The notes beneath the pieces are model-generated. The model was not told where the DNA came from. It was given only the letters and a program-made list of their open reading frames with translations, and did no database searches. Shown piece after piece: positions 2,991 through 10,116 of a stretch of DNA of 34,144 nucleotides (positions are counted from its first letter, which is position 1; each line of letters starts with the position of its first letter). The DNA comes from a virus (lineage: Duplodnaviria > Caudoviricetes), in IMG/VR virus record IMGVR_UViG_3300049472_000055, positions 1 to 34,144 of that record; one strand, written 5' to 3'. The position numbers and the translations under genes were made by a program.

Positions 2991-3205
2991 GGCTTCGCCT
3001 CGCTGGCCAGCGCATCAACCTCGTCCGCGGTCTTAAGTATGAACGCCGGCCATGGGCCCATGGGCTCGTCCTCAAAGCTCTTAAGCAGCGTAGCGTCAGC
3101 TCTCATCTTCTGCGCACGCCACTTGATCTGGCGCACGGTGGCTCCCTTGGCGATGGCGGCACGGACGCCGGCAAGCGTGGCCTGGCGGATGTCTTCGTAG
3201 CTCAC
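2987..3205 (-). CDS. Hypothetical protein
   Basis: GTG start (VSYEDIRQ) overlapping the upstream TGA, GGAG RBS. Confidence 0.65.
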   Translation of the reverse strand: MSYEDIRQATLAGVRAAIAKGATVRQIKWRAQKMRADATLLKSFEDEPMGPWPAFILKTADEVDALASEAKP

Positions 3206-3348
3206 TTGGCTTTCTCCTTGGCGTCTTCTTCTTCGATCTCCCGGCGCAGCTTGGCGATCCATGCGGCGCATGCCTGGCACTGGCGGTCGTATGTGGCCTT
3301 CTGGTCGGGCGTCATGCCCACAGGCTGGTCGTTCTTGCGGCGTGGCAT
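3202..3348 (-). CDS. Small hypothetical protein
   Basis: GAGGA RBS before MPRRKNDQ; coupled to the next gene. Confidence 0.65.
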   Translation of the reverse strand: MPRRKNDQPVGMTPDQKATYDRQCQACAAWIAKLRREIEEEDAKEKAK

Positions 3349-3355
3349 GGCGTCC

Positions 3356-3619
3356 TCAGTCGATGTTGTTGGCGGCGAGGAACGACGAGTAATCCCCGTC
3401 GCGCTTCCGGTTGTATTTCGGCACGGGACCGACAGCCGGGCTGGTCCGCTTCTTCGGGCTGTCGTTGCAGACGTAGGCCCCGCCAATGTCGTTCAGGAGA
3501 TCGACAAGCATCAGCTCGGCCTCGCCGTAGTCCTTGGCCTGTAGCTTGTTCAGGGCCATGGCCACGAAGTTCTTGAGCCCTTCGGTCTTGTTCTTGGGGT
3601 CGGGGTAGGGGAGGCTCAT
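3356..3619 (-). CDS. Hypothetical protein
   Basis: AAGGA RBS before MSLPYPDPK; lies just downstream of the promoter/operator at 3642-3669. Confidence 0.7.
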   Translation of the reverse strand: MSLPYPDPKNKTEGLKNFVAMALNKLQAKDYGEAELMLVDLLNDIGGAYVCNDSPKKRTSPAVGPVPKYNRKRDGDYSSFLAANNID

Positions 3620-3641
3620 GGGTTCATTCCTTACGTTGGTT

Positions 3642-3669
3642 GTTGTACGGCATCCGTACTTGATTGCAA
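3642..3669 (-). promoter_or_regulatory. Leftward sigma70-like promoter overlapped by operator O3 (GTACGG-CAT-CCGTAC, 3645-3659)
   Basis: Minus strand TTGCAA-16 nt-TACAAC; palindrome matches the two operators at 4336 and 4388. Confidence 0.7.
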
Positions 3670-3671
3670 GA

Positions 3672-3845
3672 TCAAACTTCCTGCATCCCGCATCCGCCCC
3701 AGCCGCGGGGCTGGGCATCGTTGAATTCCTGGGCGCTGGCGAAGCCGTCAGCATCCATCAGCGCCTTGTCCAATTCCTGAGCATTGGCAAACCAGTTGTC
3801 GGCGGCGGCTCCGTCGTCGGGCGGATCGTTTGGAAAATCGGGCAT
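3672..3845 (-). CDS. Small acidic hypothetical protein
   Basis: AAGGA RBS before MPDFPNDPP (alternative start 3860). Confidence 0.6.
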   Translation of the reverse strand: MPDFPNDPPDDGAAADNWFANAQELDKALMDADGFASAQEFNDAQPRGWGGCGMQEV

Positions 3846-3856
3846 GGTGGGGTCCT

Positions 3857-4102
3857 TCATTGGTTGTGTTCTTCGTTCCACTTCAGCTCAGCCGCGTAGC
3901 ACGCTGGGCAGAACCCGGCGCGGTCGTCCAGGCACGGGCCGCGCACATCACTCAGGGTCGGCTTGTTGCACCGCCGGCAGGGGGAAACCTGGATCCGCTT
4001 GCTGAATCTCTGGCCACGGCTGGCGGCGACCTCGGCTGCGCAGGCGTTGATGACGGCAACGCTCTTGTCGATCAGGCGCTGGACGCTGGCTGGCCGGCTC
4101 AT
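3857..4102 (-). CDS. Zn-finger-like hypothetical protein
   Basis: CRRC...CPAC; ATGA overlap with the upstream gene. Confidence 0.65.
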   Translation of the reverse strand: MSRPASVQRLIDKSVAVINACAAEVAASRGQRFSKRIQVSPCRRCNKPTLSDVRGPCLDDRAGFCPACYAAELKWNEEHNQ

Positions 4103-4302
4103 CCGCACACCGCCAGCCGGACGCCGTTGGCGCTGTCCAAGTAAACGTAATAGGTATCCCGGCTCAGCTTGAAAGTCAGCGGCTTGCCCCAGCCGGGCAG
4201 GACGGCGACCAGAACGGGACTGGCCAGGCCGGCGCGGGTAGCAGCCGCGAACGACGCCAGGGCGGCATCGAACAGCTTGGGGTTGAAGGCGGCGAGCGGC
4301 AT
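4099..4302 (-). CDS. Hypothetical protein, first gene of leftward operon
   Basis: GGAG RBS; directly downstream of the leftward promoter. Confidence 0.65.
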   Translation of the reverse strand: MPLAAFNPKLFDAALASFAAATRAGLASPVLVAVLPGWGKPLTFKLSRDTYYVYLDSANGVRLAVCG

Positions 4303-4329
4303 TGCTGGTTCTCCGTGGGTGACGAGCGG

Positions 4330-4358
4330 AGCTTAGTGTACGGGTTCCGTACACGCAA
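4330..4358 (-). promoter_or_regulatory. Leftward promoter with operator O1 (GTGTACGG-GTT-CCGTACAC, 4336-4354)
   Basis: Minus strand TTGCGT-17 nt-TAAGCT; perfect 8-bp-arm palindrome fills the spacer. Confidence 0.8.
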
Positions 4359-4382
4359 GAGGAATCTGGTGGCGGAATGTTG

Positions 4383-4410
4383 TTGACGTGTACGGACTCC
4401 GTACTACTGT
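4383..4410 (+). promoter_or_regulatory. Rightward promoter with operator O2 (GTACGG-ACT-CCGTAC, 4390-4404)
   Basis: TTGACG-16 nt-TACTGT; palindrome in the spacer; AAGGAG/GAGG RBS before ATG 4435. Confidence 0.8.
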
Positions 4411-4434
4411 TCCAGTGTACCAAGGAGAGGACCG

Positions 4435-4620
4435 ATGAGCTTCAAGCCCAGCAACGACGCCAAGAAGGTCTTGGCCGACGCCTACAATATGGGCCTGGTG
4501 ACCGATGAGTCGGTTGCCGACCTCGCCGCCATGGCCGACGCTGGCGACTATGCCGGCTTCAACGCCCTGATGAGCGCGGTTGCCGCCAAGCTGGACGGCC
4601 TGAAGGAGGCGATGACATGA
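4435..4620 (+). CDS. Hypothetical protein
   Basis: Strong RBS, GC3-rich codons, first gene of rightward operon. Confidence 0.8.
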   Translation: MSFKPSNDAKKVLADAYNMGLVTDESVADLAAMADAGDYAGFNALMSAVAAKLDGLKEAMT

Positions 4621-4808
4621 ACATCATCATCGACGCCGAGCAGATTCGGGAAGAAAGCTACTTCAACCTGTGCGCTATCGCCAGCGCCACGGGGTATGCC
4701 AATCCCGTGGCGGCTCTGGCCGTGACCAAGGAGCTGGTTGCGTGCGAGAAGGACGAGAACGGAAACATCACCAGCGCCCGGTTGCTGGACACCAAGGAGG
4801 AAGCATGA
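4617..4808 (+). CDS. Hypothetical protein
   Basis: AGGAGG RBS and ATGA overlap. Confidence 0.75.
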   Translation: MNIIIDAEQIREESYFNLCAIASATGYANPVAALAVTKELVACEKDENGNITSARLLDTKEEA

Positions 4809-4933
4809 AGACCACCAAGCTGGCGGCGCTGGCTGGCAGTAAGACCCTGACCACCCGGACCCTGGAGCAGGCCACGGCCATGGGGTTCAGCGTTATGGTC
4901 GTCGCCAAGCCCGTCAGCTGGAAGGCGGCATAA
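4805..4933 (+). CDS. Small hypothetical protein (MKTTKLAAL...)
   Basis: AGGAGG RBS, ATGA overlap, TAATG coupling downstream. Confidence 0.65.
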   Translation: MKTTKLAALAGSKTLTTRTLEQATAMGFSVMVVAKPVSWKAA

Positions 4934-5166
4934 TGCCCTACGCCGGCAAGTTCCGCGGCCCGTTCCCGGTCAAGGCGTTTGCCTTGGCCAGCGTGATCGT
5001 GACCGAGCCAGCCGAGCGCAATCGTTGCAACCCCGTCTGGCAGTGGGCCGTCCTGAGCGCGGCCGAGAAGCTGACCGGATGGGCCTACGCCATGACCTTC
5101 AGCGGCGAAGTCCGCAGCATGGCTGTCCCGCGCACAACCCCCATCCCCAAACCGGAGCCAACATGA
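4933..5166 (+). CDS. Hypothetical protein
   Basis: TAATG coupling; 77 aa. Confidence 0.7.
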   Translation: MPYAGKFRGPFPVKAFALASVIVTEPAERNRCNPVWQWAVLSAAEKLTGWAYAMTFSGEVRSMAVPRTTPIPKPEPT

Positions 5167-5531
5167 ACGATGATCCCAAACTCATCCCCCGCGCCAACTG
5201 GCAGACCAAGCAGCGCGGCACCAACCAGGACGAGTATGAAAAACCTGAGCTACCTGGCTATGGACGAAGCTGGACAGCACGCCACGCCCTACGCCATCGA
5301 TCTGTTGCGTGCTTGAGCACCCGCGAAATGACCGTCGAAACTCCTGACGGGGAAGAAATCGACGCCACCGTCCACTACGAATACGAAGCCCCGAGCCGTG
5401 CGCCGGATGGCTGGATGAAGGGGGCGCTGTGGATCTACAAGATTGAACGGGATGGGGTGGAAATCTACGTGTCGGATGAGGTGAAGGGGAAGCTTGAGGA
5501 TATTTTGTATGAGCGGGAGTGCGGCCGATGA
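5163..5531 (+). CDS. Chimeric ORF: 26-aa N-terminus of an interrupted gene + off-frame terL copy + unrelated small gene (STREMTVETPDG...)
   Basis: GGAG RBS and ATGA start at 5163; open through the 74-bp duplication; ends overlapping the MTase ATG. Confidence 0.6.
   Translation: MNDDPKLIPRANWQTKQRGTNQDEYEKPELPGYGRSWTARHALRHRSVACLSTREMTVETPDGEEIDATVHYEYEAPSRAPDGWMKGALWIYKIERDGVEIYVSDEVKGKLEDILYERECGR
5242..5315 (+). repeat. 74-bp exact direct repeat, copy 1 (copy 2 at 12299-12372 inside terL)
   Basis: AACCTGAGCTACCTGGCTATGGACGAAGC...CTGTTGCGTGCTTG identical at both loci by eye alignment. Confidence 0.97.
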
Positions 5532-6172
5532 ACGTCCTCGTCGCCTGTGAATCCAGCGGAACGGTGCGCGAGGCGTTCCGCAAGCTGGGGCATAACGCAT
5601 GGTCCTGCGATCTGCTGCCGTCCGATGACAACAGTCCATACCATACAGTCGGGGATGCGCGATACGTCATCGCCAACATGATCGCCAACGACGGGCGCGA
5701 CATGATACCGATCAGCCAAGCGGAGTGGGATCTGGTCATCGCCCACCCGCCTTGCACGCACCTTGCGTCCAGTGGGGCGCGGCACTTCGCTGCGAAGCAA
5801 GCCGACGGTAGGCAGCGAGAGGGTATTGACCTGTTCTTGGCCATTCGGGAATGCTGCAAGAAGAACGCCAAGAAGTGGGCAATCGAGAACCCTATCGGCA
5901 TCATGTCCTGCTTGTGGCGGAAGCCTAACCAAATAATCCACCCGTGGCAGTTCGGGCATGACGCCAGCAAGGCAACCTGTCTTTGGACATATTGCCTTCC
6001 GCCGCTAATGCACACCCGTGTGGTGGAAGGCCGGGTTGTGAATGGAAGGGTTAGATACGGAAACCAGTGCGATAGCGGGCAGAACAAGCTGCCGCCATCC
6101 AAGGACCGCTGGAAGATCCGCAGTAAGACGTACCAAGGGATTGCGGATGCGATGGCGGCCCAATGGTCTTGA
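5528..6172 (+). CDS. Phage DNA cytosine methyltransferase-like protein
   Basis: MNVLVACESSGTVREAF...WSCDL, DLVIAHPPCT (PC motif IV), IENP (motif VI), QFGH...KATCLW, RSKTYQGIADAMAAQW. Confidence 0.85.
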   Translation: MNVLVACESSGTVREAFRKLGHNAWSCDLLPSDDNSPYHTVGDARYVIANMIANDGRDMIPISQAEWDLVIAHPPCTHLASSGARHFAAKQADGRQREGIDLFLAIRECCKKNAKKWAIENPIGIMSCLWRKPNQIIHPWQFGHDASKATCLWTYCLPPLMHTRVVEGRVVNGRVRYGNQCDSGQNKLPPSKDRWKIRSKTYQGIADAMAAQWS

Positions 6173-6197
6173 CACACCTGTCTTTACGAGGCCGCTG

Positions 6198-6524
6198 ATG
6201 ATCGCTGACCTCCACCGCTGGGGATACCACCTCGTCCCCTGGTCCCGATCCCCCCGCAAGCCGATGATCCAGGGCTGGCTGGACAAGCCGACCGATCCGA
6301 CTGGGTTCTTGCGGGCCTATGGGGATGACATGGATTGGGCGGTCGTTCCGAAGAACGGGGTTGTTGTACTGGACATCGAGATGAAGGGCGGACTGGATGG
6401 CCAAGCCGAGTTCGATGCGCCGGCCGCGCCGGTCTACCTAGACTGTGCCAACGACGGCAAGGGCGGGGACATCACTCGCGACGGTGCGCCGCTGCTGACT
6501 TATGACGAATGGATGGGGGCCTGA
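6198..6524 (+). pseudogene. Truncated bifunctional primase/polymerase (Prim-Pol) N-terminus fused in frame to the C-half of the interrupted small gene
   Basis: WGYHLVPW...KPMIQGW...VVVLDIEMKGGLDG stops before the expected His motif; followed by unrelated VYLDCANDGKGGDITRDGAPLLTYDEWMGA. Confidence 0.65.
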
Positions 6525-6688
6525 TGCCCCACGTCCGCACTGAATACCACTGGCTGGCCGACTGCCAGATGTGGATGTTCGTGGTCATTGATGACGCCGA
6601 TGAAGTCTATGCCTGCGGCAGCGAAGCCGACCTGGAGATCGCGGCGAAGCGTGCCGGTAAAACGCTGGAACGACTGAAAAAACAATAG
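6524..6688 (+). CDS. Small hypothetical protein (MPHVRTEYHWLADCQMW..., 54 aa)
   Basis: Not in ORF track; TGATG coupling, translated by hand to TAG at 6686-6688. Confidence 0.65.
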   Translation: MPHVRTEYHWLADCQMWMFVVIDDADEVYACGSEADLEIAAKRAGKTLERLKKQ

Positions 6689-6713
6689 GTTTATTCTATT
6701 TTGTCGTTTCATG

Positions 6714-6743
6714 TTGACAAGTAAGGTGTTTACCTTATACGAG
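6714..6743 (+). promoter_or_regulatory. Promoter for replication operon with its own palindrome TAAGGT-GTTT-ACCTTA (6722-6737)
   Basis: Consensus TTGACA at 6714-6719 after an AT-rich tract; -10 is imperfect (TATACG/TACGAG). Confidence 0.6.
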
Positions 6744-6749
6744 TACACA

Positions 6750-6912
6750 GCGCAGCGGCCCCTGGCAGGGACGCAGCAACGGAACCCTTCACAATGACCC
6801 TCAACAACCCCCGAAGCATCGCCAATCAAGAAGCCGGCCCGCGAGTGAAGGCGCGTGGTCTGCAAGCCAGCTTGATTGACGATGCTTCGTTTGCTGTTGG
6901 AGGCCGCTGCTG
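6750..6912 (+). ncRNA. Structured leader RNA upstream of the replication gene
   Basis: 18/19-bp stem 6812-6830 with 6871-6889; 9-bp long-range pair GCAGCGGCC (6752-6760) with GGCCGCTGC (6902-6910); further complementary words CTTCAC/GTGAAG. Confidence 0.6.
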
Positions 6913-6913
6913 A
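6794..6913 (+). CDS. 39-aa leader peptide (uORF) coupled to the replication gene
   Basis: MTLNNPRSIANQEAGPRVKARGLQASLIDDASFAVGGRC; its TGA overlaps ATG 6913; no clear RBS. Confidence 0.4.
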   Translation: MTLNNPRSIANQEAGPRVKARGLQASLIDDASFAVGGRC

Positions 6914-7728
6914 TGGCCCGTATCAGAACCGTCAAGCCTGAGTTCTTCGAAGACGAGAACCTGGCCAAGCTCTCCCCACATGCCCGGCTCCTGTTCATCG
7001 GCCTGTTCCAACTGGCCGACAAGAACGGTGTCCTGGAGAACCGGCCGGCCTGGATTCAGTCCAAGGTCTTCCCGTATGAGTCCGGGGAAGCATCGGATGT
7101 TTCCCGGTTGCTTCCCGGGTTGGTCCTGGGGAGGTACTTGGTCGAGTATGAAGTGAACGGCCGGGCCTACCTGGCTGTCCGCAACTTCTCCAAGCACCAG
7201 CGAATCACTGGTAAAGAGGCTAAGAGCAACGGGTTGCATCCGCTGCCTCCGTCAGGTGATGCGCCTGGGAAGCACCGGGGAAACACCGGGGAAGCACCCG
7301 GGGCGACTCCGGATGCCCAGGAACAGGGAACAGGGAACAGGGAACAGGGAACAGGGAACAGGGAGAATTCGGATGCGCCTGAGGCTGCGCCTCCCATCGA
7401 CCCCGAAGCCCGGTGGCCATACGAACGCGCCCTGCCCTGGGCAATCCAGATCCAGGCACTCGGGGGGAAGATCGGCTCGGGCAACTGGATGGCCTGGAAG
7501 CGGCTGAGCGAGCTGCACCCGGCATCGACCCTGGCCCGGGCAGCCGAGAGCGTGCGCGCCGATCAGCGCTGGCCCGATCAGGTCGAAATGGCGATCAAGC
7601 AAATGCCGCCGCCCGTGCGCAAGGTCGAGCGCAGGCCAGAGCCGACGCCCGAAGAACGCGAGCGCAGGCGGCAGGCGGTTGCTGAGCTGGCGAAGCGGAC
7701 TGGCCTAGCACCTGTGGGGGCAGCATGA
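6913..7728 (+). CDS. Phage replication initiator / replisome organizer-like protein
   Basis: MARIRTVKPEFF...LSPHARLLFIGL...AD..G N-terminus typical of this class; internal iterons and low-complexity linker. Confidence 0.8.
   Translation: MARIRTVKPEFFEDENLAKLSPHARLLFIGLFQLADKNGVLENRPAWIQSKVFPYESGEASDVSRLLPGLVLGRYLVEYEVNGRAYLAVRNFSKHQRITGKEAKSNGLHPLPPSGDAPGKHRGNTGEAPGATPDAQEQGTGNREQGTGNRENSDAPEAAPPIDPEARWPYERALPWAIQIQALGGKIGSGNWMAWKRLSELHPASTLARAAESVRADQRWPDQVEMAIKQMPPPVRKVERRPEPTPEERERRRQAVAELAKRTGLAPVGAA
7266..7310 (+). repeat. 11-bp iteron-like repeats (putative replication origin)
   Basis: TGGGAAGCACC, GGGGAAACACC, GGGGAAGCACC, then degenerate GGGGCGACTCC; related copy GGGGAAGCATC at 7084-7094. 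Confidence 0.7.
7320..7361 (+). repeat. Heptamer tandem repeat (GGAACAG) x6
   Basis: Six perfect copies, 42 bp, encoding EQGTGNR twice. Confidence 0.95.
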
Positions 7729-8438
7729 AGCCCCGCATCGTCCCCTCCATGGCCGAAGCGAAGGCATTGCCCGTGCAATGGACCGAGGGCGTCATCTGCA
7801 ACGCAGTGGCTGCGTATGTCGAATGGTGGCGCAACACCGTGGTGCCGAACGTCTATCTCGGACCAACTGGCCGCGAGATCGATGTGGCTGTGATGACCAA
7901 GGCTGGACTGCTGTGGGCGTTTGAGATCAAGACCAGCCTGGCCGACTGGAAGCGCGACCTAACGAAGCGCAGGTACCCGGCATGCGCTGAGCCGGCGCGG
8001 TTTTACTACGTCGTTCCCGAGACGCTGGTGCAGTGGGCTGAGCGCCCGACGTGCCATGCGTGGACAAAGTTGAGCCCAATTATTCCCGAGTGGGTTCCGA
8101 AGCACGCAGGCATCGTCTTCCTGCGCAATGACCGGCAGATGACCACTTACGACGATGGCGTTCATGTGTTCGATACACCGAAGCGCGGATACGTTCACCC
8201 ATGCAAGAGCATCCACCGTCGCCCGCTGGATCCGAAGTATCGCGGAGGTAGCATGAACATCTTCGAAGAAGTCGAAAAGCTCCCGCGGCACCACCGCCTG
8301 GCTCTGGCCGGCTACATCCTGCGCAGCGTCAAGCCCAAGGGCGATGAGAAGAAACGACTGCTGGGCAGGTACCAGACGGAGGAAGTTCACGATTACAAAC
8401 CACATGATCTCGGCGAAAGCCGCCCGGAGGGGGTCTAA
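7725..8438 (+). CDS. MmcB-like PD-(D/E)XK nuclease-fold protein, apparently fused to a second small gene
   Basis: EIDVAV...FEIKTSLADWKRD...RFYYVVP...AGI; internal GGAGGT + in-frame ATG at 8253. Confidence 0.7.
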   Translation: MKPRIVPSMAEAKALPVQWTEGVICNAVAAYVEWWRNTVVPNVYLGPTGREIDVAVMTKAGLLWAFEIKTSLADWKRDLTKRRYPACAEPARFYYVVPETLVQWAERPTCHAWTKLSPIIPEWVPKHAGIVFLRNDRQMTTYDDGVHVFDTPKRGYVHPCKSIHRRPLDPKYRGGSMNIFEEVEKLPRHHRLALAGYILRSVKPKGDEKKRLLGRYQTEEVHDYKPHDLGESRPEGV

Positions 8439-8740
8439 TGGGATGGTCACCAACCAAAACGCGCCGATATGCAAAGCCCACGACGAAGCGGGAATACGAG
8501 AGAATGCATGCGCGCGCTTTATCGGTTAAAGATCGTGAGCGCACATTGCGCGTGAGCGAAACATTTCGGCTCGTCATGCTGAAGCTGTTCCCGAAAGCTT
8601 CGCAGGCTGAAATCGCACGAGCTGTAGATCTCCCAGTGGCTGCCATCACCAAGATCATGTGTTGTGAGACATATGGCTATGACCGTCTGGAACCTGTGCT
8701 GGCACGAATTGCAGCATACATCGAAAGGATGAAAGCATGA
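8438..8740 (+). CDS. HTH-containing protein (candidate transcription regulator)
   Basis: ASQAEIARAVDLPVAAITKI HTH-like segment; GGAGG RBS, TAATG coupling. Confidence 0.6.
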   Translation: MGWSPTKTRRYAKPTTKREYERMHARALSVKDRERTLRVSETFRLVMLKLFPKASQAEIARAVDLPVAAITKIMCCETYGYDRLEPVLARIAAYIERMKA

Positions 8741-8848
8741 TCATCATTGGACAAGGATGCGGCAGAACCACCGGACACGGTGAAACCTGCTGTGCGAAGG
8801 CCGGCTTTGCGATGCATGCTCGACTATTCAACGCATGAGGGGAATCCG

Positions 8849-9022
8849 ATGAGACATCATCTCACCATGGCGCTGATGGCTGCACGGTTGTCGATATGCA
8901 GCGCTGACAGCCGTGGAGACATCCGCTGGCGTAAAGGATCGGACCGCCAGCTGAGCAAGCGGCAGAAGACCCGCGCCGCCAAGAAACGGAAGAAGCTGCA
9001 CAGGAAGCAGGGCCGCCAATGA
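8849..9022 (+). CDS. Small basic hypothetical protein
   Basis: GAGG RBS; Lys/Arg-rich C-terminus; ATGA overlap downstream. Confidence 0.55.
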   Translation: MRHHLTMALMAARLSICSADSRGDIRWRKGSDRQLSKRQKTRAAKKRKKLHRKQGRQ

Positions 9023-9198
9023 GACTGCCAAACACCACGATCAAGCGCGACGAGAAGTACGTCACCATCCGCATCCCGCTCCGCGTGGCAGCTGCCATGA
9101 CCCAGGAGTATTGGGACATGCTGGCGACCAACACCAGGCGATTGCTGCCAGACGTAACGCCAATCCAGAACCTGACAGCGAAAGTCAAAGCGCCATGA
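9019..9198 (+). CDS. Small hypothetical protein (MRLPNTTIKRDEKYVTIRIP..., 59 aa)
   Basis: Not in ORF track; ATGA overlaps at both ends. Confidence 0.65.
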   Translation: MRLPNTTIKRDEKYVTIRIPLRVAAAMTQEYWDMLATNTRRLLPDVTPIQNLTAKVKAP

Positions 9199-9476
9199 CA
9201 ATCATGGCCCATCACTTCGACATTGGCTGCAATGAGTGCGGCGACTGGCGGGCGGTCACAGCGAACACCGCTGGCGCTGCCCGTCGCTCACTCAAGGCCA
9301 AAGGCTGGGTGAAGATCAGCGAATGCGGTCGCATCAATGATCTTTGCCCAATGTGCGCAGGCCAGTGGCGAGCCACAAAACTGGCAATCAAAGCCGAACG
9401 CCAGCGAGAGCGATACCAGAAGGTATCAAACCCACAGCAACACCAATTCAAAACCAAGAAGGAATCCCATGTCTGA
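9195..9476 (+). CDS. Zn-finger hypothetical protein
   Basis: CNEC...AARRSLKAKGW...DLCPMC. Confidence 0.7.
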   Translation: MTIMAHHFDIGCNECGDWRAVTANTAGAARRSLKAKGWVKISECGRINDLCPMCAGQWRATKLAIKAERQRERYQKVSNPQQHQFKTKKESHV

Positions 9477-10116
9477 CGCCATTAACGCGGCTCGCGCCGC
9501 CCTCACCCTCATCTGGCCCGGAGGCGCTGAGTGCGTGGAATGCGGCCCGGGCGTGCGAGTGTTTGCTCTGGACGCCGCAGAGAAGCGCGAGGCCGAGCTG
9601 GTCGAAGCGCTGGAAGCCATGTGCGGTCAATACCTAAGCGTTCGCGACGGCAAGCTGCACCATGACTTCATGAGCGCTGGCGAGCTGGCATTTGACGCCT
9701 TGGGCTGGGAAGACACCGGGCACCCACTGGACGCCAGCCAGCTCTGCGAAGTGCCAGGCTGCGGCCAGGCGTGGTCATGCGGTGCCAACGGGAAGGACGA
9801 CAAGTACCACACCTTCTGCCACAACCACTTCAACGAGTGGATCGCCGCCGGTCACCACGAAACGCAGGAGCAGGCCGACGCCCGCTGGACCAAGAACCTG
9901 CGCGACAGCGGCATGAGCGACGAGGAGGTCGCCGCGCACCAGGAGAAGATCAGGAACATGCACAGCCAGTGGAAGGCGCTTCAGGACAAGATGCCGGAAG
10001 CGCAGCCGTTGGAGCTACTGGCCAAGGTCGTGAAGCTGGACGAGACGGCGAACCGCGTCGAGGCCCTGGCACACGAAACGGCACCGAGCAGCGCAGCGCA
10101 GGAGTTCGCATCATGA
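9469..10116 (+). CDS. Mosaic hypothetical protein with Cys/His clusters
   Basis: AAGGA RBS before MSDAINAA; CVEC, CEVPGC...FCHNH. Confidence 0.75.
   Translation: MSDAINAARAALTLIWPGGAECVECGPGVRVFALDAAEKREAELVEALEAMCGQYLSVRDGKLHHDFMSAGELAFDALGWEDTGHPLDASQLCEVPGCGQAWSCGANGKDDKYHTFCHNHFNEWIAAGHHETQEQADARWTKNLRDSGMSDEEVAAHQEKIRNMHSQWKALQDKMPEAQPLELLAKVVKLDETANRVEALAHETAPSSAAQEFAS

Follow-up and report, generated by a model that had tools for sequence, protein, structure and literature searches.

The window analysed here, that is, the whole 34,144-base stretch of DNA, is the entire virus record IMGVR_UViG_3300049472_000055, which is about 42% complete. Profile matches identify integrase, terminase and portal genes, so that the window represents a fragment of a temperate phage. 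The open reading frame (ORF) at 6913-7728 matches three PHROG families (16167, E = 4e-35; 2149, E = 8e-29; 1408, E = 1e-25) and, by family annotation, apparently encodes a replication initiator; no solved structure was found for the initiator profile. A contig from one public run, which may be the record's own source, is identical to the window over 6300-7336, showing that the leader in front of the initiator gene is not an assembly join, and nothing more. The gene and its leader contain the following features.

6714-6741, plus strand: putative sigma-70-type promoter, with a perfect -35 box TTGACA at 6714-6719 and a weak -10 candidate TATACG at 6736-6741
6722-6737, unstranded: 6-bp inverted repeat in the promoter spacer, a possible operator
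6752-6777, plus strand: upstream target hairpin, with the 6-nt loop a1 (CUGGCA) at 6762-6767
6786-6792, plus strand: target site b1, which ends 1 nt before the start codon of the upstream ORF (uORF) and forms 7 of 7 pairs with b'
6794-6913, plus strand: 39-codon uORF that crosses the whole hairpin, its stop codon overlapping the initiator ATG (TGATG)
6801-6806, plus strand: 5' side of the lower stem extension, which pairs with 6895-6900 and covers the start of the initiator Shine-Dalgarno sequence
6812-6830, plus strand: 5' arm of the long stem (18 of 19 pairs, one C.A)
6836-6860, plus strand: inner hairpin, whose loop (6844-6851) displays b' (GUGAAGG, 6845-6851)
6861-6866, plus strand: a' site, complementary to the a1 loop
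6871-6889, plus strand: 3' arm of the long stem, which pairs with 6812-6830
6890-6896, plus strand: weak, uncertain a2-like site adjoining the stem on its 3' side; of its 7 positions, 5 form Watson-Crick pairs with a' and 1 a G-U
6899-6903, plus strand: initiator Shine-Dalgarno sequence GGAGG, for which folding of the full leader predicts pairing
6902-6910, plus strand: 3' side of the outer helix (9 bp with 6752-6760), which competes with the a1 hairpin and is specific to the window
6913-7728, plus strand: phage replication initiation protein, 271 aa (PHROG family annotation)
7266-7302: iteron-like GGGAAGCACC repeats within the initiator gene

Several of these features had been marked in a first-pass annotation of the same DNA, which named covariation in homologous leaders and an Rfam search as ways to check them. 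The 18/19-bp stem and the 39-codon uORF ending in TGATG are present as described, and so are two short complementarities: the pairing of CTTCAC at 6787 with GTGAAG at 6845, in the loop of the stem, is really 7 bp long (6786-6792/6845-6851), and the near-complement of CTGGCAG at 6762 and CTGCAAG at 6860 holds at 6 of 7 positions.

The surroundings of the leader show some features of their own. Within the initiator gene, the stretches 7069-7119, 7266-7302 and 7320-7368 comprise GGGAAGCACC-type inverted and direct repeats as well as a tandem array of GGGAACA, present also in the related loci L126 and L001; the repeats and the array are candidate origin iterons. Farther to the left, the palindrome GTACGG-N3-CCGTAC occurs in three perfect copies (3645-3659, 4338-4352 and 4390-4404), two of them in a divergent promoter gap, where one stands beside a TTGACG box. 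The third occupies the gap that precedes the leftward ORF at 3622. All three are likely repressor operators, with no relation to the palindrome in the initiator promoter. The 108-aa ORF at 6198-6524 has no Pfam or PHROG match, and its first 70 residues presumably resemble a truncated N-terminal domain of a primase-polymerase; a contig of run X1 diverges from the window within this ORF, at 6405. The ORF could be the mark of the replacement of an older replication module.

The long stem stands well apart from chance expectation and is conserved by compensatory change. None of 300 shuffles reaches 19 bp with one mismatch, the shuffle maximum being 13, and the fold z of the leader is -3.35 and -3.92. 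A protein search delineated a tight subfamily of 26 initiator relatives, with 55-87% identity in the N-terminal domain, and L126 (with its duplicate, L133) has a colinear leader that includes TTGACA, the upstream hairpin, a uORF and a 19-position stem. The register of the stem is free of gaps between the window and L126, with 19 positions around a 40-nt inner region; of the 19 pairs, 9 differ on both sides and 6 are identical, and the remaining 4 can form in only one of the two sequences. When the structure is slid, 0-3 both-side changes are counted over its whole length; because the covariation rests on three distinct full members, such shuffle controls do not translate into probabilities. 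The third member emerged when a covariance model, built from the window and L126 only and devoid of the loop-target pairings, was run over 96 sources: it was found in L001 (29.3 bits, E = 5.8e-5), where the long stem has 13 of 13 pairs and the element lies about 180 nt further upstream than in the window. Given no structure, RNAalifold finds 14 of 34 pairs to be compensatory. Its prediction includes the upstream hairpin, the inner hairpin and the long stem along with the lower extension, and leaves out the outer helix. The extension is paired in 9 of 10 cells and shows no covariation.

Two further pairings connect the hairpin with sites upstream of it. The a1 loops of the window, L126 and L001 read CUGGCA, CUGCCA and UUGACG, and the respective a' sites, UGCAAG, UGGGAG and CGUCAA, which amounts to 5 of 6, 5 of 6 and 6 of 6 pairs; the mismatch in the window and that in L126 fall in the same column, and three columns are changed on both sides across the three members. 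The hairpin that presents a1 is in register, with 8, 9 and 8 of 10 positions paired. The b1:b' pairing comprises 7 of 7, 7 of 7 and 6 of 6 pairs, formed by different letters, and b1 ends 1, 0 and 6 nt before the uORF ATG, overlapping a purine run (GAGG or AGGG) in L126 and L001. Each b1 site matches the loop of its own member over 7, 7 and 6 nt, compared to only 3-4 nt for the loops of the other members, whereas for a1 this contrast is smaller (5 versus 3-5 contiguous nt). The two sites together, correctly ordered, turn up in 13, 19 and 0 of 22,734 background 45-mers for the window, L126 and L001, respectively, and the b pair alone has a background of 0.23% and 0.45%. Sampling of the genome yielded a 7-mer complement of the loop in 31 of 13,648 25-nt windows (0.23%); shuffling of the 25-nt stretch gives a weaker contrast, with 1,328 of 20,000. 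The predicted probability of being unpaired is 0.81 (mean) for b' and 0.62 and 0.28 for a', which is predicted to pair in part within the hairpin. Unconstrained duplex energies computed over the whole region do not favour cognate over non-cognate pairs. The a2-like site has a similar counterpart in L001 and none in L126.

The uORF comprises 39 codons in the window, 37 in L126 and 82 in L001, and its ATG lies 67, 64 and 64 nt from a', that is, in the same frame in all three members. In two of the three, the uORF ends at the initiator start, overlapping it in the window and abutting it in L126 (TAG-ATG); in L001, the stop is located 36 nt upstream of the initiator, and a 10-codon ORF ending in TAATG bridges the gap. 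The uORF peptides have no match in Pfam or PHROG and are unlike each other. The shared frame, together with the dissimilar peptides, fits the notion that translation of the uORF matters rather than its product, which is how we would read these sequences. The uORF of the window has only a weak Shine-Dalgarno sequence. Covariation in homologous leaders is thus borne out for the long stem, both loop-target pairings and the a1 hairpin, and the frame of the uORF is likewise kept.

Other parts of the leader are not shared. The -10 candidate TATACG lies at a spacing of 16 nt from TTGACA, and this -35 box is found at the same place in L126, with TTGCGC in L001. A consensus promoter scan did not include the plus-strand initiator promoter among its sites and is therefore not sensitive; over 3000-9500, it found a single promoter-like site, a minus-strand one at 6720-6693 that is directed away from the leader. 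This sigma-70-like site (10/12) overlaps the initiator promoter and is directed leftward, antisense to the small ORF at 6524-6688; no counterpart is evident in L126. The first-pass annotation had assigned the TTGACA promoter a palindrome of its own: both are present, at 6714 and 6722-6737, the -10 box being weak, and the palindrome is specific to the window. As it is seen in neither L126 nor L001, we rejected it as a feature of the family.

The same annotation had noted a 9-bp long-range pair overlapping the ribosome-binding site. The complement exists (6752-6760/6902-6910) and touches only the last two bases of GGAGG; by shuffling it is borderline, with 15 of 300 shuffles containing a perfect helix of at least 9 bp and 53 of 5,000, one that reaches the ribosome-binding region. 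L126 retains only 4 Watson-Crick pairs and 1 G-U of the 9, and RNAalifold omits the helix, which was accordingly rejected as a family feature. The start regions of the ORF at 6198 and of the initiator (6188-6202 and 6900-6915) are near-identical, with GAGGCCGCTG ahead of the ATG, so that the 3' half of the outer helix may be merely the habitual ribosome-binding context of this phage. In the window, the full-length fold prefers the outer helix over the a1 hairpin (P = 0.99 versus 0.01), and both the Shine-Dalgarno sequence and the AUG of the initiator are predicted to be paired in the full leader. The predicted probability that the Shine-Dalgarno region is unpaired is 0.16 in the full leader of the window and only 0.30 after removal of the 5' half; for L126, the respective values are 0.47 and 0.65. 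In folds predicted for a growing transcript, the a1 hairpin comes first. The b1:b' pairing is seen at two of the intermediate lengths and, from 6882 on, the long stem prevails; the transcript has to reach 6912 for the outer helix to form.

The element has a narrow distribution among the loci searched. Besides L001, the two-sequence model detected a 5'-truncated candidate in L146 (E = 0.0011). In this locus, a long stem at positions 20-125 has two inner hairpins, with CGCCAA where a' would be, and lies ahead of an HNH-like gene upstream of the initiator; the 5' part is beyond the contig. The model R1, applied to 73 further loci, returned only L181, which is the same contig as L001, and in 151 genomes (phylum of G001), it gave one weak match (E = 0.0018) that was rejected as apparently lying inside a coding region. 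A blastn search of phages and plasmids with the leader detected no homolog, and in five DNA-pattern searches of viral contigs, two of which covered 17-18 of 64 parts, no new member was among the matches listed; one of the five gave just L001's own contig. A descriptor search recovered L001, L126, L198 and L170, missed the window and produced 5 unrelated matches in control loci, and is not counted as evidence. The element is present in three of the seven close relatives with enough upstream DNA (the window, L126, L001, L124, L127, L131 and L164; for L125, L128, L129 and L130, the upstream DNA is too short) and hence is dispensable for the gene family. The window, L126 and L001 belong to one 8-row branch of the initiator tree (support 94/99), with L164 left out.

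Runs X2 and X4 contain an initiator about 88-90% identical to that of the window, with other bases directly upstream. In a second contig of similar depth from these runs, 32 of 39 bases match window positions 6865-6903, followed by a different ATG; ahead of the match lies a 5-bp hairpin with an 8-nt loop (AGATGAGG versus AGTGAAGG in the window). This 4-kb contig, seen in runs X2-X5, is a possible fourth member located before a different gene, which, as judged from the portion downstream of its 5' part, hints that the cassette may move between genes. Leaders that cannot be aligned with the element and are analogous to it precede distant initiators: those of L178 and L198 contain two nested complements, that of L234, two in parallel order, and those of L151, L149, L147 and L131, a single one. 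The leaders of L178, L198, L234, L151, L149, L147, L166, L167 and L131 combine a long stem with an upstream site, near a uORF start, that complements a loop of this stem; between the close alleles L149 and L147, site and loop have changed together. Among 101 non-redundant loci with 235 nt upstream, a perfect complement of at least 7 nt between the loop and the upstream region occurs in 5 of the 6 leaders with both a promoter (score at least 9) and a stem (score at least 11.5), the window included, compared to 8 of the 95 others (Fisher p = 9e-5, with the two cut-offs chosen after the table had been seen); L001, with its element beyond the range scanned, is counted as one of the 95.

The first-pass annotation had surmised an unlisted RNA family, and this holds for Rfam 15: neither the gathering score nor a cut-off relaxed to E = 10 brought up a match in the window, L001 or L126, and a search with 14 whole loci together with these three yielded chance-level matches only. 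The P1 c4 control scored 68.8 bits with C4, 51 bits with c4-a1b1 and 35.1 bits with isrK (E = 1.1e-5). For the c4-2 RNA motif (Weinberg 2017, PMC5737381, in part), the comparison covered Rfam 15, which may or may not include it and in which no family matched.

The proposed parallel with P1 C4 and P4 CI proved apt for the anatomy, that is, the order of the sites and the letters of the a1 loop. As in P1/P7 C4 and P4 CI, antisense sites and their targets lie on one transcript, in the order a1 (in a hairpin loop), b1, b' loop and, just 3' of it, a'; the C4-type nesting of a'/b' with respect to the upstream a1/b1 was found in 3 of 3 members. The a1 loop of the window shares 6 of 7 letters with UUGGCAG, the consensus loop of c4-a1b1 (RF03163), and the window reads GGU-CUGCAA, compared to AGU-CUGUCAA in P1. 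However, the C4 covariance model (RF01695, clan CL00128) has no match at the 45-bit threshold in the window, L001 or L126. C4 comprises three stems, P1, P2 (with a tetraloop) and P3, whereas the window and L126 have a long stem and one inner hairpin, without the tetraloop arm. The a2/b2 sites of C4 (seqC in P4 CI, whose targets are seqA and seqC) are set on the ribosome site of the next gene. In the P1 control, the annotated a1, b1, a2 and b2 sites came back as complements of 7 of 7 and 8 of 8; the best a2 in the window has 5 Watson-Crick pairs and 1 G-U of 7, the best b2, 5 of 7, and L126 has neither. The outer stem of C4 carries RNase P-type ends, with GGW at the 5' start and CACC at the 3' end (PMC5320573 and alignment rows of PMC2864571, both in part), a signature that is absent from the stem of the window element. 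Furthermore, the blocked frame here would be a uORF that starts upstream of the hairpin and crosses it, and the next gene is a replication initiator rather than icd-ant or kil. The site order, the placement of a' just after the b' hairpin and the a1 loop letters suggest a distant kinship with C4.

The uORF arrangement has a parallel in isrK-orf45 of Gifsy-1 (RF01394), which likewise combines a promoter, a structured 5' part and a uORF of about 40 codons that runs across a complementary hairpin and encodes a non-conserved peptide (PMC4825925, in part). The stop-start junction of isrK-orf45 is found in the window and in L126; in L001, the uORF ends early and the mini-ORF forms a bridge. In contrast to the roughly 30-nt helix of isrK, the element has two short complements, of 6 and 7 nt, and no isrK model match; its downstream gene is an initiator, and that of Gifsy-1 encodes an antirepressor-like protein. 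In the plasmids ColIb-P9 and R1, replication is controlled by a leader-peptide mechanism. The repZ pseudoknot and Inc RNA of ColIb-P9 and the CopA system of R1 resemble the element in tying an initiator to a leader peptide (PMC8383071, in part), and the a1 hexaloop is similar to UUGGCG (PMC10724649, in part). ColIb-P9 and R1 use counter-transcribed antisense RNA, whereas none is evident here by the insensitive promoter scan. The element would work like C4/CI and isrK-orf45 and is a member of neither Rfam family.

The first-pass annotation had read the leader as an RNA-based replication or immunity switch. The covarying stem, both pairings, the a1 hairpin and the uORF frame support such a reading; the outer helix and the promoter palindrome, which had been counted toward it, are specific to the window. 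'Switch' and 'immunity' are what we infer from the sequence. With moderate confidence, we interpret this conserved structured leader RNA with its uORF as a translational off-switch for the replication initiator. Ribosomes translating the uORF would unwind the long stem and then reinitiate at the initiator by translational coupling, as in orf45-anrP of Gifsy-1 (PMC4825925, in part). To block this, a' would dock on the a1 loop, and b' would then pair with b1; because b1 lies on the ribosome-loading site of the uORF, this pairing would shut off the uORF and the initiator. Antisense control within the same transcript has precedents (PMC4825925, PMC5320573 and PMC10111431, each in part). By analogy with P1 C4 and P4 CI, the blocking partner might act in trans, as a stable hairpin RNA released by cleavage of earlier transcripts; this is the least certain step, to which we would assign perhaps half of the confidence placed in the off-switch. 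Alternatively, the partner would be the same molecule. With neither a CACC 3' end nor a b2 target, a trans-acting processed RNA is without direct support. If the partner is such an RNA, the initiator would be expressed in a brief burst after infection and silenced in the lysogen, with sequence-specific immunity as the outcome. If loss of uORF translation led to Rho-dependent termination, this would fit the off-switch and not constitute a separate model.

The same pairings could also act in the opposite direction, as an activating pseudoknot of the kind found in I-complex plasmids: the uORF would open the stem, and pairing of a1 (and b1) with a' (and b') in cis would free the Shine-Dalgarno sequence from the 3' arm, turning the initiator on. 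This scheme gains from the similarity of the loops CUGGCA and UUGACG to the ColIb-P9 loop motif UUGGCG, given in a reference title in PMC10724649 (in part), from the CGCCAA of L146, and from the presence of b1:b' in the best fold of transcripts that end at 6855 and 6875, in which the 3' arm is still incomplete. However, compared with the long-stem fold, a structure constrained to contain b1:b' is less stable by 13 kcal/mol, and one that also contains a1:a', by 19.5 kcal/mol, pseudoknots being outside the folding model; b1:b' would block the very uORF that the scheme requires; and the promoter scan, insensitive as it is, shows no minus-strand promoter for a counter-transcript over the leader. 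We consider such an activator unlikely. Similarly unlikely is an IsrK-type arrangement, in which the leader would be locked off in cis and a short 5' RNA containing a1 and b1 would unlock it in trans via a' and b'. Its precedent is isrK-orf45-anrP of Gifsy-1, with the same gene order, a uORF across a complementary hairpin and an overlapping stop-start (PMC4825925, in part). From b1 to the stem there are 15-19 nt of linker, so that, by rough geometry, cis pairing could be possible. Against this arrangement, there is no terminator hairpin between b1 and the stem to release a short 5' RNA, and the isrK model finds nothing.

A transcription attenuator, in which the long hairpin would serve as the terminator and uORF translation or an alternative pairing would decide on read-through, is improbable. 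The window does have 5 T in the 8 nt after the stem, and P4 CI works through termination (PMC4825925 and PMC10111431, both in part), but the T run is lost in L126 (3 of 8) and L001 (2 of 8), so that an intrinsic terminator was rejected as a family feature, and the stem encloses a loop of 40 nt. Finally, only the long hairpin might be functional, in RNA stability, as a nuclease site or as a DNA cruciform, with the complements and the uORF arising by chance. The small number of members, the shortness of the complements and the non-specific whole-region duplex energies would be compatible with this simplest account, but three phages have both complements in corresponding positions, each with letters of its own, and L001 was found by a model that lacks these pairings; we regard the account as largely refuted and highly improbable.

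Returning to the translational off-switch, the leader is best read as a real, covarying, uncatalogued RNA element with a uORF, which places same-transcript antisense control on a phage initiator gene. We found no description of the element in the literature searched, including those parts of the supplements of the two main motif catalogues that were covered; four 12-letter motifs of the element are absent from 6 supplement files of PMC10690425 (in part). Control of this type has already been worked out for P1 C4, P4 CI and Gifsy-1 IsrK, and the Rfam families come from Proteobacteria. The present element follows this logic in a form without a match in Rfam 15 and sits directly on a replication-initiator gene. 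With their different loop codes, the three natural alleles lend themselves to a cross-specificity test of whether the loops serve as an immunity code, and they could be a compact starting point for designing orthogonal RNA switches. A broader, tentative possibility, which we hold to be doubtful at present, is that many non-enterobacterial temperate phages gate their initiator with a stripped-down, C4-related mobile cassette, consisting of a target hairpin, a uORF start and a two-loop antisense hairpin, that moves between genes and phages. The loops would then constitute a fast-changing immunity code, conferring incompatibility and superinfection immunity by RNA only, and the cassette would link C4, IsrK-orf45 and the leader-peptide controls of plasmids.
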